Shown: piece after piece, positions 41,336-48,120 of the stretch
How the letters are laid out: each line of letters opens with the position of its first letter
Numbering within the stretch: position 1 is the first letter of the stretch
NCBI GenBank assembly: GCA_018238545.1
Contig: JABCTC010000005.1
Coordinates: 1-64,000, forward strand
Direction of reading: 5' to 3'
Source of the DNA: Candidatus Heimdallarchaeota archaeon
GTDB lineage: Archaea > Asgardarchaeota > Heimdallarchaeia > Heimdallarchaeales > Heimdallarchaeaceae
Length of the DNA: 64,000 nucleotides
Position numbers and translations under genes: made by a program
The notes under the pieces: model-generated
What the model was told of the DNA's origin: nothing
What the model saw: the letters and a program-made list of their open reading frames with translations, nothing else
Databases searched by the model: none

Positions 41336-41459
41336 CGGACCTTAGCTCAGTGGCTTAGAGCTCTCGGCTGTAGTCAGGAGACACCCTTGTGAACAATGAT
41401 CAAGGCGTCAGTCGGTAGTAACCGAGCGGTCCCGTGTTCAAATCACGGAGGTCCGACCA
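41336..41459 (+). tRNA. tRNA-Tyr(GTA) with 47-nt canonical intron (41374-41420) and encoded CCA
   Basis: Acceptor cggacct/aggtccg (C1:G72), anticodon stem ctcgg/ccgag, GTA at 41370-41372, T-arm ccgtg-ttcaaat-cacgg, BHB helix CUGU/GUAG. Confidence 0.95.
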
Positions 41460-41468
41460 CTTTATTTT

Positions 41469-42227
41469 TTATTTTGTTTTCTTACCTATTGCTGTAAATA
41501 CGGGTATAAAGATCATCCTTCTATTCTGCTTAATCAGCTGTTGCTCTTTTTCCATAATTTGTTTAAACTCTGTTTCTGTAATCAGATTCGCCTCTAACAC
41601 TCTTTTCCATTCTTCCTCTATGTTATTAATTAAAGATTCTTTGTTCCAGGTTTGAGCTATAACAGAGATCTCAGTTTCTAGCCCTGCGGATTCAAAATAG
41701 GAGAGTAATTTTCTTCCAGCTAAAGGATCAGCACCTTCGTCTCTTAGATATTCAGTATGTTTTTTACCAAGGTTCATTTCAGGATATTCAACCCACCCTC
41801 CATAATCAGGTTCAGCTAAAGCTGCAACATATCCTTGTTTTTTACATACTCTGTAAATTTCATTCATTGCTTTAGTCGGATTCTTTAACCACAATAAGAG
41901 ATATTGAAAAAGCACAATATCGAATTTATTATCTTTCAAAGGAAGGTTTTCAACAGCCTCCACAAGAAATTCTACGTCTTCAACTCTCTGCTTCGCTACT
42001 TCAATCATTTTTTCATCTATATCGATAGCTGTTATCTTAGCAGATGTTCGAGATCTTAGTTCTCTAGTTATTGTTCCCATGCCACAACCAATTTCTAAGA
42101 TGTTTTTTGCTTTGGTTAAATCTATCTTTCTGTAGATTTGGTTGCGAAAAAAAAGGGTCCAAGAAGCTTGACGTTCAAACTGTTCTACTATTTCTGGACC
42201 CCAATTAACTCTCGGTTTTTCATTCAT
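41469..42227 (-). CDS. Class I SAM-dependent methyltransferase (third gene of the rSAM operon)
   Basis: ILEIGCGMG, IDID, LPLKDNKFDIV, LAEPDYGG; ATG 42227 lies 22 bp after the rSAM stop. Confidence 0.9.
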   Translation of the reverse strand: MNEKPRVNWGPEIVEQFERQASWTLFFRNQIYRKIDLTKAKNILEIGCGMGTITRELRSRTSAKITAIDIDEKMIEVAKQRVEDVEFLVEAVENLPLKDNKFDIVLFQYLLLWLKNPTKAMNEIYRVCKKQGYVAALAEPDYGGWVEYPEMNLGKKHTEYLRDEGADPLAGRKLLSYFESAGLETEISVIAQTWNKESLINNIEEEWKRVLEANLITETEFKQIMEKEQQLIKQNRRMIFIPVFTAIGKKTK

Positions 42228-42249
42228 TTGAGACACACATTTGACAATA

Positions 42250-43557
42250 TTATGAGAAGGATTCTCTACAAACAGTAGTTGGAGCACTATAATTAAGAGG
42301 ACATCCTCCTCCACAGATTTCCACTTCAGGACAATCAGTGCACTCATCAGGTAGATATTTCATTTTCCTTAAACTCTTAGCAAGCTTGTGGTTCCATATT
42401 TTCTTCCATTTTGTGTTCAAGATATGGCCTAGTGGTTCAAAATAACTTTGACATGGAAGAACCATACCATCAGGTTCTATTGCCATGGCAATATGAGCTG
42501 CTGTGCATTGCTTTAATCCTAACCCTTTTTCAATTGGATTAAAATCGCAGTATCTTGTAGGACTGTACCAGAGGAAACCCATGTCTTTTTCTTCTGCTTT
42601 GTTCATTATCCGACTAATAACATCATCCAATGCTTCGACAGAGAGAGTGAAAGCTTCATCTTTTCCGCCTCCTGATTTGATGATACCATTTGCAGCAAAA
42701 TGGTCTATACCTAGAGAATCGAGGAAATCTATTGTTTTCTCAATATCTTTTATATTGTAAGGAGTTAAGGTTGTATTTGTTAAGATGTACACTGGAGTAG
42801 GAACGATGTTTTTTATTCCTTGAACAGTTTCTTTCCAAGCTCCTTTGAAACCGCAAAGTTCATCATGAAGCTTCTCATCGTGACTCTCGATTGTGATTTG
42901 GAAATGATCTATTCCAGCAGTAACTAGTTTGTCTACAAATTTCTTATCCTTAAACATCCTACCATTCGAGATTATACCAGTAATAATTCCCAAATCTTCA
43001 GCATAAGCTACTAACTCTGGTAAATCCTTTCTTAATGTAGGTTCCCCACCAGTAAAAGTTACATGAGGAATACCAATTTCCCACAGATTGTCTAGTACTT
43101 GTTTCCATTCGTCTGTAGTCAATTCAATGATTTCTCTCTTATGTTCGACATAACATTTAGTGCATTTATTATTGCATCTGTAGGTTAAGGCTAAATCCAT
43201 ACGTAAAGGAGCAGAGAAAGGAGTTTCTAGTAAAGAACTGATGTCTTGAGATAAGTGTTGCACAGGATCGATATCGGGTTTTGTTAAGAGATCCATTATT
43301 GATGTCTTGAAATCTACTAAGTCGTTCATCAGTTGAATCTCATCTACACGATATTTTCTTTTAACTTCGGATACAATTTCCTCATTGGTTTTCCCTTCAA
43401 TTATTCGAGAAGCAAAATCTGTTGCAGTTCTGTTTAAATGAAAAATTCTTGTAGCATTTACCAAGAGTAAACTATTACCCTTTTTCTCTTTCCTTAAATG
43501 CATTCTTGCAAAAGTATCTAAATTCCTTATATGGGACATTTTCTTTTCTCGCATCAT
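42250..43557 (-). CDS. PqqD/RRE-radical SAM-SPASM peptide/protein maturase
   Basis: N-terminal HLNRTA..F...I.....EEIV......Y.V......D...F (PqqD/RRE-like), CNNKCTKC, FTGGEP, SPASM C-x17-C and CTDC.....CGGGC; ATG overlaps the upstream stop (ATGA). Confidence 0.92.
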   Translation of the reverse strand: MMREKKMSHIRNLDTFARMHLRKEKKGNSLLLVNATRIFHLNRTATDFASRIIEGKTNEEIVSEVKRKYRVDEIQLMNDLVDFKTSIMDLLTKPDIDPVQHLSQDISSLLETPFSAPLRMDLALTYRCNNKCTKCYVEHKREIIELTTDEWKQVLDNLWEIGIPHVTFTGGEPTLRKDLPELVAYAEDLGIITGIISNGRMFKDKKFVDKLVTAGIDHFQITIESHDEKLHDELCGFKGAWKETVQGIKNIVPTPVYILTNTTLTPYNIKDIEKTIDFLDSLGIDHFAANGIIKSGGGKDEAFTLSVEALDDVISRIMNKAEEKDMGFLWYSPTRYCDFNPIEKGLGLKQCTAAHIAMAIEPDGMVLPCQSYFEPLGHILNTKWKKIWNHKLAKSLRKMKYLPDECTDCPEVEICGGGCPLNYSAPTTVCRESFS

Positions 43558-45233
43558 CTTCCACCTCCGGCACAGGCACAGGCACAAGCACAGGCACAAG
43601 CACATCCTCCGCCACCACCACCACTTCGACCACTGCTTCTGGAAACAGGGGGACGAGTAGCTTTTTGTAAAGATTTTGTGAAGGTTTGTGGTTTTGCTAT
43701 GACTCCTGATTGGAGACTGCTAATTGGACCAACATGAGTTGATCCACTGTGGTGTTGAATCCTGAAGAATGATCTAGAAGCAGACCGTGTATATGAACGT
43801 CCTGTATAGAAATAGTAATTTCGGACATACCAATGTGGATAGTAGTAACCATCTCCTCGTCTTTCAAGACGTTCTTCATATCCTTCATCAACCATAATCC
43901 AAAGAAATGCATCTTTGAGTTCAGGAGTAGTTTTCTTCATCTCCTCCCATGATTTATCGATAATTTCCTCATAATGCTTCTTTGTTCTTCTAACGGAGTA
44001 ACCTTTCATCTTTTTCGAAACACCTTTAATACGTATTATGAGAGCTTTTTTCAATTCAGTTTGGTGAACTGGTTCTCGAGGGATAGCACCAGAACTAGCA
44101 CCTTTTTTCCATTTTATATCTTCCTTATTTCTTCGTCTAATACCCGCTATAATGCTTTGTTGATATTTAGGAAGCTGAGTAATTACTTGAGAACTAGCAA
44201 CCACTTGAAACCTTAAAACGGGTTTTGTGGTCTCAATCTCCAAATAACCTAATTTCATCATTTCAAATAATATCAACGTTGCAACTTGAGCTAATGGTCT
44301 TTGTAATAGTATTGCAACTTGTGAGGGAGTTAAATCCTTCTTCACACCCCCACCTAGAGTTGTTACTATTGGTGGAAGGTATTCCTTGCTCTTTCTTCTT
44401 TTCCTCAATAAGTAAAATATTACAATCACGGCCACTATAGCAAAGAAAATAATTATGTCTCTGTTGTTATATAGGGTTAAACTCCAGAAAACACTATGTA
44501 CTTTCACATATTCCTCCGGAAGACCAACAGCTGACATGTATCCTTGGGAAGGAGAGCCAATTTTATTAAATTCAATATAAGGTCCATCTGAAGATGAAGC
44601 TACAGATGTTGCATCACTAGGTTCAGCATGTAAAACATTCCAATCTGAAGAAGTTTGTCTTACTTTTGTTTCATCAATGTCAGTCAAAATTTCTGGAAAA
44701 TAATATCTTACTCTTCTTTCAGTTGTGCCACTTGCAAAAGAACCATCATACCAAGTTTGGAGAAAAACTACGGATGCAAAACCCTCTACACTGTCAGGAT
44801 ATACCATTGCAGGATTGTGACAAAAGACTTCTAAAACACCAAATTCTCCAGGATCAATTTGACTAGCACCAAGCCAAATTTCAACACCGATTTCTATATA
44901 CTCGCTTTTTTTGATTTTTGAACTAGCTATCTCTAAACCGTTCAATTTCGCGGTAACAGAGGATAACTCATAGTGATCATTTGGAAACCCAACATCAATT
45001 ACATCTATTGAACTATAACCAGGAATACAATAGAATTCCATCTCATAATATATATCAATTGAACCATCTTCTAAAATGTGAATATCTGTATACATATAAG
45101 GAATTTCAAAACCATAAACAGCATCTAATGTTGTTAATCCGTCATCGAAATCACTCGCTAAACTAGCACCAGAAACGATAAAAATCGATATGAACAAAGA
45201 ACAACTCACAAATAATAATAACCTTGATCTCAA
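43554..45233 (-). CDS. Single-pass membrane protein (DUF2207-like architecture) with C-terminal Gly-rich (Cys-Ala)6 tail
   Basis: Signal peptide, DIHILEDGSIDI.Y ectodomain, TM followed by RKRRK, LTPSQVAILL, ends SGGGGGCACACACACACAGGGR. Confidence 0.88.
   Translation of the reverse strand: MRSRLLLFVSCSLFISIFIVSGASLASDFDDGLTTLDAVYGFEIPYMYTDIHILEDGSIDIYYEMEFYCIPGYSSIDVIDVGFPNDHYELSSVTAKLNGLEIASSKIKKSEYIEIGVEIWLGASQIDPGEFGVLEVFCHNPAMVYPDSVEGFASVVFLQTWYDGSFASGTTERRVRYYFPEILTDIDETKVRQTSSDWNVLHAEPSDATSVASSSDGPYIEFNKIGSPSQGYMSAVGLPEEYVKVHSVFWSLTLYNNRDIIIFFAIVAVIVIFYLLRKRRKSKEYLPPIVTTLGGGVKKDLTPSQVAILLQRPLAQVATLILFEMMKLGYLEIETTKPVLRFQVVASSQVITQLPKYQQSIIAGIRRRNKEDIKWKKGASSGAIPREPVHQTELKKALIIRIKGVSKKMKGYSVRRTKKHYEEIIDKSWEEMKKTTPELKDAFLWIMVDEGYEERLERRGDGYYYPHWYVRNYYFYTGRSYTRSASRSFFRIQHHSGSTHVGPISSLQSGVIAKPQTFTKSLQKATRPPVSRSSGRSGGGGGGCACACACACACAGGGR
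43569..43604 (-). repeat. Hexanucleotide repeat TGTGC(T/C) x6 encoding (Cys-Ala)6
   Basis: tgt gct tgt gcc tgt gct tgt gcc tgt gcc tgt gcc; variation only at Ala third positions. Confidence 0.95.
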
Positions 45234-45390
45234 ATTTTTTGCTCCCCAATTATTCTGTTAAAGTATATCTTTAATATGTCAAATCATTGAATAAACTAAT
45301 AATTAAAGTTATTGTATTAAATTTTCCAAGCTAAAATTCTATCACTAGTTGGCAAGATTTATTACAAGGATTACTTTCTGTTCCAATAGC

Positions 45391-45744
45391 ATGACCTCTG
45401 AAGGATTCCAAAAGATAATGCGAGTTATTTGGGAACAAACAAAGCCCTTACTGAGATTTTTACTAACAGTGACAGTCATAATGTCAATAGCAATTATAAT
45501 TATGCTATTTGTTTGGGGTTTTGATTTTCAAGATGATGCATTTCTCGTACTAGTTATAGCTGATATCTCTATTCTCATAATTTTTGTTGTTGGATTAATC
45601 ATTGTTGGAGTTAGACACGTGTTTACTGATTTAACAAAGGGTGATGAAGTTCCATGTAGGTTCTGCGGAGAGGATATAACAGGTGGGAGTAACATTTGCA
45701 CAAACTGTGGCAAGGACAATAGAAAGTTCACAGATTCAACATAA
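45391..45744 (+). CDS. Two-TM membrane protein with C-terminal zinc ribbon
   Basis: Two hydrophobic helices; CRFCG...CTNCG; ATG 45391 preferred. Confidence 0.75.
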   Translation: MTSEGFQKIMRVIWEQTKPLLRFLLTVTVIMSIAIIIMLFVWGFDFQDDAFLVLVIADISILIIFVVGLIIVGVRHVFTDLTKGDEVPCRFCGEDITGGSNICTNCGKDNRKFTDST

Positions 45745-46809: not shown

Positions 46810-46920
46810 TTTGTCTTCTTGTCTTATTAGACAAAGCTAAGTACATGTCGTGCTTAGAGCTCATGATATAGGGCGAAGATACTCTATACTCACTCTGAGT
46901 GGATACATCACGTATCCTCC
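46810..46920 (-). ncRNA. Putative omegaRNA overlapping the tnpB 3' end
   Basis: Consecutive minus-strand stem-loops: ggatac-gtgat-gtatcc, actca-gag-tgagt, ctaag..cttag, ttgtct-aata-agacaa. Confidence 0.55.
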
Positions 46921-48120
46921 TATCCCGTTCACCCTGCGTTTAGGCAAGGCTTTCGGATCGCTTTTTATCAATATATTATATGCAGCGTTAACATCAGCAT
47001 TGATCAAATAGCCAGTAGCAGAACGGAACAACCCTCGGCGAACCCTTTTCCCCTTGTACTTCTTACGATAACGGGGAAATTCATTATCCAGGAAACTGCT
47101 CTTGGAGGTGTATTGTTCAGGAATCGTCTCCACCTTTATCCCTTGCTCAGCTCCTTTATATTTTAGCATATCGATGATTTTCAAGTAAGGGATGGTGACG
47201 AACATCTGGGTGGTCTTTTTCCAGAAATGGAGATTCTGTTTCCATAGCTCATTGTAGCCTATGATCACTTCATGGAGCCCTCGTTCGACCCACAAGTCTA
47301 CCAGATACTTGGTTAATTTGTGGATAGCATCATTCAGTTTCCTTCTCCACTTTTCTTTGAGTTTGTAGTAAGCTGGGCCATACTTGAGTCTGTTCTTATT
47401 TTGCAAATGCTTTCTCTGCTGCTGACTATACTGTAGTTGTAATTTCTTCTGTTCTTTCAAATAATATTGTGTAATGGATTTTATGCCTTTCCCTGCATCT
47501 TTGATAACAATCGGTCTTCCTCCGAGGTTATCTACGAAAGTGGCAAGGTTGTCCATCCCTAACTCTATCGCTCCTTTTCTGATTATTTTCTTCTTGAGAT
47601 TGGGTATACTCTTGAGATAAACAAGTTCAAGGGCATAGTGAGTTCTCCTTGGAATGATTCTTACTTCTCTTAACTCCGCTTGAGCTGTCAGTCTTGTCTT
47701 GCAGGTGTACTTCACTTTCTTAGGTAGCACCAACCATCCATTTACTATCTTCGCTTGTTGATTGGTGAAGATGGCTACCACTTCGCCATCCTTCTTCTTG
47801 TAGTTAGGTGGATTAGGCATGGCAAAAAACAATGTTGGGTTCCTCTTCCACTCTTGTTTCGCTTGGAAATAGCTCTTCCAACATCTAGAAAGAAGCTTGA
47901 GCGTCTGTTGGGCAACATGGGCGGGAAGAACACGATAGCACTCCTCCAGTTTCAACTGTTTGTCAAGACCGTAGTAAAAGAGAAGTTTGCTTGTTTGCTT
48001 CAAAGAAGTTTTTATTAGAAAATTTGCCCGATTATAGAGATTTTTAGCTTGATGACAGATTCTGCTAAGTGCTGGATGATACACCACTTCTATACGTTCT
48101 GCACGCAGTACCTTTGCCAT
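46861..48120 (-). CDS. tnpB: TnpB RNA-guided endonuclease (rearranged RuvC-II subtype; RuvC-I D>E)
   Basis: AKNLYN.AN, QQTLK, AIELGMDNLA, VIIGYN, PEQYTSKSSFLD, GLFRS...INADVNAAYNI. Confidence 0.92.
   Translation of the reverse strand: MAKVLRAERIEVVYHPALSRICHQAKNLYNRANFLIKTSLKQTSKLLFYYGLDKQLKLEECYRVLPAHVAQQTLKLLSRCWKSYFQAKQEWKRNPTLFFAMPNPPNYKKKDGEVVAIFTNQQAKIVNGWLVLPKKVKYTCKTRLTAQAELREVRIIPRRTHYALELVYLKSIPNLKKKIIRKGAIELGMDNLATFVDNLGGRPIVIKDAGKGIKSITQYYLKEQKKLQLQYSQQQRKHLQNKNRLKYGPAYYKLKEKWRRKLNDAIHKLTKYLVDLWVERGLHEVIIGYNELWKQNLHFWKKTTQMFVTIPYLKIIDMLKYKGAEQGIKVETIPEQYTSKSSFLDNEFPRYRKKYKGKRVRRGLFRSATGYLINADVNAAYNILIKSDPKALPKRRVNGIGGYVMYPLRVSIEYLRPIS

Follow-up and report, generated by a model that had tools for sequence, protein, structure and literature searches.

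A Cys-Ala-tailed membrane protein as the candidate substrate of an RRE-radical SAM enzyme in a Heimdallarchaeota genome

Introduction

What does a radical S-adenosylmethionine (SAM) enzyme with a RiPP recognition element (RRE; RiPP, a peptide made by the ribosome and modified after translation) act upon when its start codon overlaps the stop of a large membrane protein with a cysteine-rich tail? The question is raised by three co-oriented minus-strand genes at 41469-45233 of contig JABCTC010000005.1, from the 3.6-Mb genome of a Candidatus Heimdallarchaeota archaeon; the first 64,000 nucleotides of this contig were analyzed and are called the window. The genes encode a membrane protein, an RRE-radical SAM-SPASM enzyme and a methyltransferase. 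An earlier note on this DNA had proposed that the Cys-Ala tail of the membrane protein is what the enzyme modifies, and synteny, a phylogenetic profile and a structural model of the complex support that proposal. We consider it quite likely that the tail is the enzyme's substrate, and moderately probable that the locus is a protein-borne, RiPP-like modification system. That the product consists of thioethers specifically is about an even bet.

Results

Conservation of the tail

The proposed substrate is a 559-aa protein with a TTG start (43554-45233, minus strand) and a DUF2207-like architecture, namely a signal peptide, a beta ectodomain, one transmembrane (TM) helix, a cytoplasmic domain and the Cys-Ala tail. 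The proposed core at residues 538-559 (43557-43622, minus strand), singled out by its conservation and by its position in the complex model, is a Gly6 linker followed by (Cys-Ala)6-Gly3-Arg; five Gly had been counted previously, but the sequence reads Ser-Gly6-(Cys-Ala)6-Gly3-Arg. The motif occurs in no other long open reading frame (ORF) of the genome. Across 84 homologous loci, the last 10 tail residues are invariant while all synonymous codons are used at every position; the tail is under selection at the protein level. A microsatellite or slippage origin was rejected on the same ground, since all synonymous codons are in use.

The earlier note had suggested a search for Cys-Ala-tailed proteins elsewhere, and a profile search indeed uncovered a large family, which comprises 886 clusters when grouped at 50% identity and, when grouped at 90%, at least 5,619, all of them unnamed among the matches listed. 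Family members are 500-950 aa long, and nearly all full-length ones end in Cys-Ala repeats plus GGGR, a single extra Gly or Ser being frequent. The tail-only DNA pattern occurs in Anaerolineae and other Chloroflexota, Planctomycetota, Acidobacteriota, Myxococcota, Methanomassiliicoccales and Asgard archaea. Many of the bacteria and archaea that encode such a protein are anaerobes.

Linkage of the tail and the enzyme

We next counted neighbors in the 162 tail loci with at least 1.6 kb of downstream DNA. A radical SAM-like gene lies directly after the tail in 122 of them, with an intact CxxxCxxC motif in 115, and an intact radical SAM gene is found anywhere in the locus in 129. Homologous tails are thus linked to such genes, as the proposal of a substrate had anticipated. 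In all nine of the genomes with an unlinked tail that were checked, the orthologous enzyme is located elsewhere in the genome (E<=1e-115). A phylum sample of 20 further loci carried the radical SAM gene without exception, and 14 of these showed five genes: a zinc-ribbon membrane protein, the membrane protein, the radical SAM enzyme, a Cys-less pseudo-SAM protein and the methyltransferase. Among 399 Asgard genomes, both genes of the Cys-Ala type were present in 63, the membrane protein only in 2, the enzyme only in 9 and neither in 325, with thresholds of our own choosing and related genomes that are not independent. Within family f5, each of the three genes is present in 11 of the 22 genomes, and these 11 are the same throughout.

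The zinc-ribbon protein of these loci, about 127 aa long with its zinc ribbon at the C-terminus and EPKW as its last residues, is encoded directly upstream in 107 of 140 loci (e.g., L160:5226-5573 and L317:5729-6103); it is a fourth core component of the system, without a clear orthologue in the window. The Cys-less RRE-pseudo-SAM protein, a paralogue of the enzyme, occurs in 47 of 96 long loci (e.g., L053:4123-5316 and L257:2288-3712), with none found near the window locus, and is possibly a chaperone, scaffold or regulator. At one locus (L285:486-3332, P0118), a single 948-aa ORF fuses the RRE-pseudo-SAM protein to the membrane protein, with the methyltransferase after it; this fusion was seen once and could be a read-through artefact. 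Near two archaeal loci, and in these two cases only, SPFH/Band_7 and zinc-ribbon genes were noticed (L286:3063-4139, L289:6333-7313), an arrangement reminiscent of membrane-stress modules, for example that of YdjI in B. subtilis (PMC10936438).

An internal leader candidate

Immediately after the TM helix lies the motif Y285-x-x-P288...G294-x-G296, which is the most conserved cytoplasmic segment besides the tail: in 85 sequences, Y285, G294 and G296 are 100% conserved and P288 is 98% conserved. The motif resembles [Y/W]xxPx[L/V/I/F/A], which is bound by the RREs of lasso-peptide systems (PMC13381572). The whole cytoplasmic region was therefore modelled together with the enzyme. The resulting complex scored 0.81, while the best control scored 0.00; the mark used is attained by 58 of 80 solved complexes and by 2 of 110 mismatched pairs, and our model, built with our own alignments and ligands, lies outside this calibration. 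At least 45% of the contacts are shared between runs, with a partner pLDDT (predicted local distance difference test) of at least 75. In the model, expected errors are lowest where the RRE touches residues 282-300, and the enzyme barrel takes up residues 551-559. The model thus supports binding of the RRE to residues 282-300, and the RRE-binding leader is most likely the YxxP-x5-GxG motif at residues 285-296 (44346-44381, minus strand), under the membrane. The median distance from leader to core is 258 residues.

This places the leader elsewhere than the earlier note had, which put it just upstream of the tail. A leader within the last 100 residues was rejected, as neither the model nor conservation points there; the complex model that had been suggested passes when the whole region is included, whereas a model of the last ~100 residues would miss the leader. 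Nor was an N-terminal leader found, the N-terminus being a hydrophobic segment (residues 5-23; 45165-45221, minus strand) that is probably a signal peptide, judging from hydropathy and a model helix at 3-22.

In a second Asgard clade, which is common in family f31, both partners are divergent, the enzyme as well as the membrane protein, which here ends in (Cys-His-x-Ala)n. The YxxP motif is kept in this Cys-x-x-x-tail clade. That tail type and enzyme clade change together supports the tail as the substrate. One locus (L256) has a hybrid tail, and one Cys-x-x-x tail weakly matches TIGR04117, a model of Cxxx-repeat radical SAM targets (E 2.8e-6, below its cut-off).

The radical SAM enzyme and its probable chemistry

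The enzyme (434-435 aa; 42250-43557, minus strand) carries PqqD (PF05402, 2.2e-6; 28.3 bits, above the cut-off of 23.4), Radical_SAM (PF04055, 8.4e-28) and SPASM (PF13186, 4.8e-10) domains. In 154 sequences, CxxxCxxC is 100% conserved and seven SPASM Cys are 98-100% conserved; a further downstream SPASM Cys is present in 85, the last one being missing in 69. The enzyme profile matches the TfuB1 RRE (6jx3, E 5.7e-5), the SPASM Cys spacing aligns with CteB, and the closest solved relative in the PDB profile comparison is the sactisynthase SkfB (E 8e-31). At the six positions of a published catalytic-proximity scheme (PMC10288494), compared by eye and without the scoring of that paper, the enzyme has Y-T-I-T-Q-S, with five positions invariant in the 154 sequences. 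StsB has Y-T-I-S-K-L and CteB has F-F-T-S-H-Q (PMC10288494), and Y-T-F-S-Q-L was read from the SkfB alignment, so that by eye the enzyme is identical at 3/6 positions to StsB, 3/6 to SkfB and 0/6 to CteB. Since these residues resemble those of the sactisynthases SkfB and StsB, Cys-to-Cα thioethers would be our best guess for the product.

Several observations weigh against the proposal. No curated sacti- or ranthisynthase cut-off is reached (SkfB 115/300, AlbA 75/850, StsB 85/625 bits), and the highest NCBIfam scores are those of PqqE and NirJ2/AhbD; these, too, lie below their cut-offs (PqqE 139/381, NirJ2 136/500, AhbD 121/500, MftC 85/265 bits), and no cognate pathway genes are conserved nearby. 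As for the pairing, the mirror-tree correlation (r 0.88) partly reflects shared ancestry, relatives not being independent. The pass of the complex model may partly be likeness to RRE-leader complexes already solved (CteB, TfuB1). Finally, an extra Cys ahead of the SPASM motif, the plain metal-binding character of the tail and a set of genomes with only the enzyme count on the same side.

The first alternative keeps the tail as substrate and changes the chemistry to epimerization of alternating residues, Cys oxidation or an MftC-like C-terminal oxidative decarboxylation. With 98% conservation, the extra Cys could occupy the AuxI site, which is open in CteB, and AuxI may then be fully ligated. 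In the family search, comparable scores are obtained for MftC, AhbD and decarboxylases of the BlsE type, and in the model the barrel holds the final nine residues with the C-terminal Arg among them. Against this alternative, the final residue varies in related clades while the Cys and the Gly pair persist, and the proximity profile is nearer to sactisynthases (PMC10288494). We regard this alternative as unlikely.

In the second alternative, the tail is an unmodified metal or Fe-S site, and docking to the membrane protein merely anchors the enzyme, which acts on a cofactor, a lipid or another protein. Cys-x-Cys and Cys-His repeats are classic metal ligands, the zinc-ribbon protein is a frequent upstream neighbor, and the common, catalytically dead paralogue indicates that docking without catalysis exists. 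In addition, family f12 includes nine genomes (72-89% complete) with the enzyme, and in most cases the methyltransferase, yet without a detectable membrane protein or tail; these are the main evidence against exclusive pairing. By contrast, the joint shift of tail type and enzyme clade, the threading of the tail into the active site in the model and the lack of any other conserved biosynthetic gene in 244 loci speak for modification of the tail, and a bare metal site seems improbable to us.

It is very unlikely that the membrane protein is a giant precursor whose modified tail is cut off to act as a small RiPP. The flexible Ser/Gly/Arg linker before the core, with low pLDDT from residue 534, and the leader-core order found in RiPPs would fit such a release, but no protease or exporter is conserved among the neighbors, and the ectodomain and the cytoplasmic domain are conserved as folded units. 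A separate short precursor as the real substrate, with incidental linkage, has hardly any chance in our view: the enzyme-only f12 genomes would suit it, but no short precursor is conserved among the neighbors (as the earlier note had seen at the window locus), no conserved short Cys-rich ORF was seen at the f12 enzyme loci, the tail pattern was absent from four of these genomes, and short tail ORFs were rejected as precursors because they are frameshifted pieces of the membrane gene.

The methyltransferase

The third gene (41469-42227, minus strand) encodes a 252-aa class I SAM methyltransferase of a subfamily that travels with the radical SAM gene. It had been regarded as a tailoring partner, and this holds in so far as it is frequent (58 of 96 long loci) and stays beside the radical SAM gene where the membrane gene is elsewhere. 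It is not obligatory, however. The group that includes the Cys-His-x-Ala clade lacks it in all of its 89 genomes; it is missing from the Cys-His-x-Ala loci L047, L048, L252-L256 and L258-L263, and in f31 a metallophosphoesterase gene comes right after the tail. Homologues are also found in 18 f20 genomes that lack the system, and a second, unlinked paralogue is present in the source genome (G000:C100:27717-28433) and in most of its family. The methyltransferase is thus a frequent, non-obligatory accessory.

In three archaeal homologues, the tail lacks the terminal GGGR, and the radical SAM gene is present with no adjacent methyltransferase; the methyltransferase profile has among its best PDB matches LahSB (6uak, E 2e-23), a RiPP-associated C-terminal carboxyl methyltransferase (PMC11285071). 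The LahSB match covers the SAM-binding half only, phosphoethanolamine methyltransferases score slightly better, and the acceptor is not assigned by it. On these two grounds, we weakly suggest that the methyltransferase may methylate the C-terminal carboxylate of the tail.

The membrane-protein family and its folds

Pfam and NCBIfam gave no match for the window membrane protein, and Pfam gave none for ten homologues either. A described group, DUF2207 (PF09972/PF20990), may have the same overall architecture, and structural neighbors in the Atlas carry it at TM-scores of 0.38-0.41 for a multidomain model. Its gathering score was not reached: a distant homologue scored 21.6 against 24.4 bits, with no match for the window protein and the ten homologues. 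Unlike DUF2207 proteins, this branch has the Cys-Ala tail and a dedicated enzyme, which are specific to it as far as tested.

The AF2 model of the membrane protein has a pLDDT of 85.8. Its extracellular beta-sandwich (residues ~40-240; 44514-45116, minus strand) is folded like the ribophorin I lumenal domain and the M1 aminopeptidase N-terminal domain (Foldseek E 4e-8 to 1e-6, ~220 aligned columns). The TM helix comprises residues 258-276 (44406-44462, minus strand) and is followed by the basic stretch RKRRK; over the 10 residues preceding the Tyr motif, the mean net charge is +3.4 in 83 homologues. Hydropathy and the positive-inside rule thus suggest that the C-terminal half is cytoplasmic. 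It contains a folded domain (residues ~300-510; 43704-44336, minus strand; AF2 pTM 0.84) with a weak likeness to GOLPH3/Vps74 (GPP34 fold), matched by VIA at Z 6.3 (root-mean-square deviation 4.1, 162 aligned) and 5.5, the next match being 2.8; Foldseek found no significant match for this domain, so that VIA alone matched it, at modest Z. Neither fold assigns a function to the membrane protein.

Some family members stand out. Tandem duplicate membrane-protein genes, each tailed, share one enzyme set at L188, L189, L195, L207, L216 and L238, and P0016 has a duplicated ectodomain. Loci from a genome labelled Syntrophothermus are of the same Chloroflexota-like form. One IMG/VR viral contig (L051:5856-6152), the sole viral contig with a tail, encodes the final portion of a short-tailed family member.

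Gene order and neighboring features in the window

The reported layout of three co-oriented genes, a putative signal peptide, a TM helix followed by RKRRK, a Tyr-rich segment, overlapping stop and start codons, RRE-radical SAM-SPASM domains and a 22-bp gap was confirmed by sequence, coordinates and Pfam, the signal role being read from hydropathy. The TGA stop of the membrane-protein gene (43554-43556) overlaps two in-frame ATG codons of the radical SAM gene, at 43557 (ATGA overlap) and 43554, and the last Gly codons of the tail double as a purine-rich, ribosome-binding-like site ahead of the radical SAM ATG. The 22 bp separate the radical SAM stop from the methyltransferase start. Named homologues at 75-85% identity belong to Heimdallarchaeota/Heimdallarchaeaceae. 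An Rfam scan gave no match, and a promoter/terminator scan stayed near shuffle level.

Around the operon, a gene called as tRNA Asn(GTT) with a 47-nt anticodon-loop intron (41336-41459, plus strand), detected solely with the intron option of ARAGORN, converges on the methyltransferase stop. A 131-aa two-TM protein with a C-terminal zinc ribbon (45349-45744, plus strand) is divergent from the operon; it found no support as the usual upstream partner of the family (E 0.07), being retained in only three close loci. A 419-aa ORF (46861-48120, minus strand) resembles a TnpB/IS605-family protein, judged from its sequence.

Discussion

The evidence suggests the following course of events. On insertion, the membrane protein would expose its ectodomain to the outside and keep its C-terminal half in the cytoplasm, where the RRE of the enzyme, according to the model, binds the juxtamembrane YxxP motif as an internal leader. 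The GPP34-like domain and the Gly linker would let the Cys-Ala tail, ~258 residues on, reach the radical SAM active site. There, as expected from the enzyme class, a 5'-deoxyadenosyl radical would take a hydrogen atom from a tail residue, which is then coupled to a Cys sulfur. The most likely product would be a set of sactionine (S-Cα) bridges that join Cys with Ala or Gly within a hairpin, of the kind that StsB makes on StsA. The methyltransferase would then probably methylate the tail, at the C-terminal carboxylate or a free Cys, and after modification the tail would probably remain on the protein and serve a membrane complex from the cytoplasmic side, in metal binding or signalling; both of these last steps are speculative. 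The whole picture of a system spread across domains, in which an RRE-radical SAM enzyme reads an internal, juxtamembrane, lasso-type leader on an intact membrane protein and adds several sactionine-type crosslinks and a methyl group ~258 residues away, the tail remaining as a functional element of a complex with the zinc-ribbon protein and the pseudo-enzyme, is put forward tentatively, at slightly less than even chances.

RRE-dependent radical SAM enzymes are mined via short ORFs with N-terminal leaders. If the proposal is true, internal leaders in at least 5,619 clusters (90% identity; Chloroflexota, Planctomycetota, Methanomassiliicoccales and several Asgard lineages) would be missed by short-ORF mining, and Asgard archaea would have a new post-translational modification. 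It would also mean that leader and core are separable by a folded domain, which is relevant to engineering site-specific protein crosslinks. The proposal is directly testable with a soluble 282-residue fragment and a culturable source such as Ornatilinea apprima.

How does the locus compare with known systems? SkfB, AlbA, CteB/SCIFF and PapB share the fused RRE-radical SAM-SPASM/twitch architecture, but they act on short precursors, usually with a protease and a transporter, none of which is found here, and the scores are far below the curated cut-offs. The locus is therefore no member of the sacti- or ranthipeptides, as it has no short precursor, though it likely works like them. Membrane proteins of TIGR04222 with Ser/Gly/Cys low-complexity C-termini have been proposed as substrates of neighboring MNIO enzymes (PMC12452194). 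That system differs in its enzyme class, its looser linkage and its tails, which are predicted to be periplasmic; TIGR04222 gave no match for the window protein, and one homologue reached E 0.008 (15.8 against a cut-off of 43 bits).

The earlier note had known of no characterized system like this one. That statement holds for the family, no description of which turned up in literature searches on the motif, on DUF2207 combined with radical SAM and on RRE systems of Asgard archaea (subscription papers being outside coverage), but radical SAM thioether formation on whole proteins has been published, for QhpD/QhpC and for CrpC/CrpA of Methanococcus voltae (PMC13692751). There, an RRE-radical SAM-SPASM enzyme installs thioethers on a whole-protein substrate encoded alongside it. 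Here, too, linkage places a Cys-rich whole protein beside such a gene, with RRE engagement predicted by the model, and CrpA, like the window substrate, is archaeal and Cys-rich in its C-terminal region. CrpA and QhpC, however, have an N-terminal leader and ranthionine links, whereas here the leader would lie within the chain, close to the membrane and ~258 residues away from the core, and the substrate would be an integral membrane protein. The CrpA repeat also differs, belonging to the TIGR04463 family, which is not among the top family matches. Protein substrates as such thus have precedent in QhpC and CrpA; for an integral membrane substrate whose leader is internal, the literature searched offers none.

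The closest characterized core is that of StsA, on whose CxCxC...GxGxG sequence StsB makes three Cys-Gly sactionines (PMC10288494). The StsA/StsB/StsC and BlaA/BlaB systems (PMC10288494) share with the window locus alternating Cys (CxCxC) followed by Gly, an RRE-dependent radical SAM enzyme and proximity residues that are 3/6 identical plus one Thr/Ser exchange. StsA, by contrast, is short and soluble and is served by a discrete RRE, whereas here the core ends a 559-aa membrane protein. What would be new here is the integral membrane substrate, the internal leader, the folded spacer and the pseudo-enzyme and zinc-ribbon partners.

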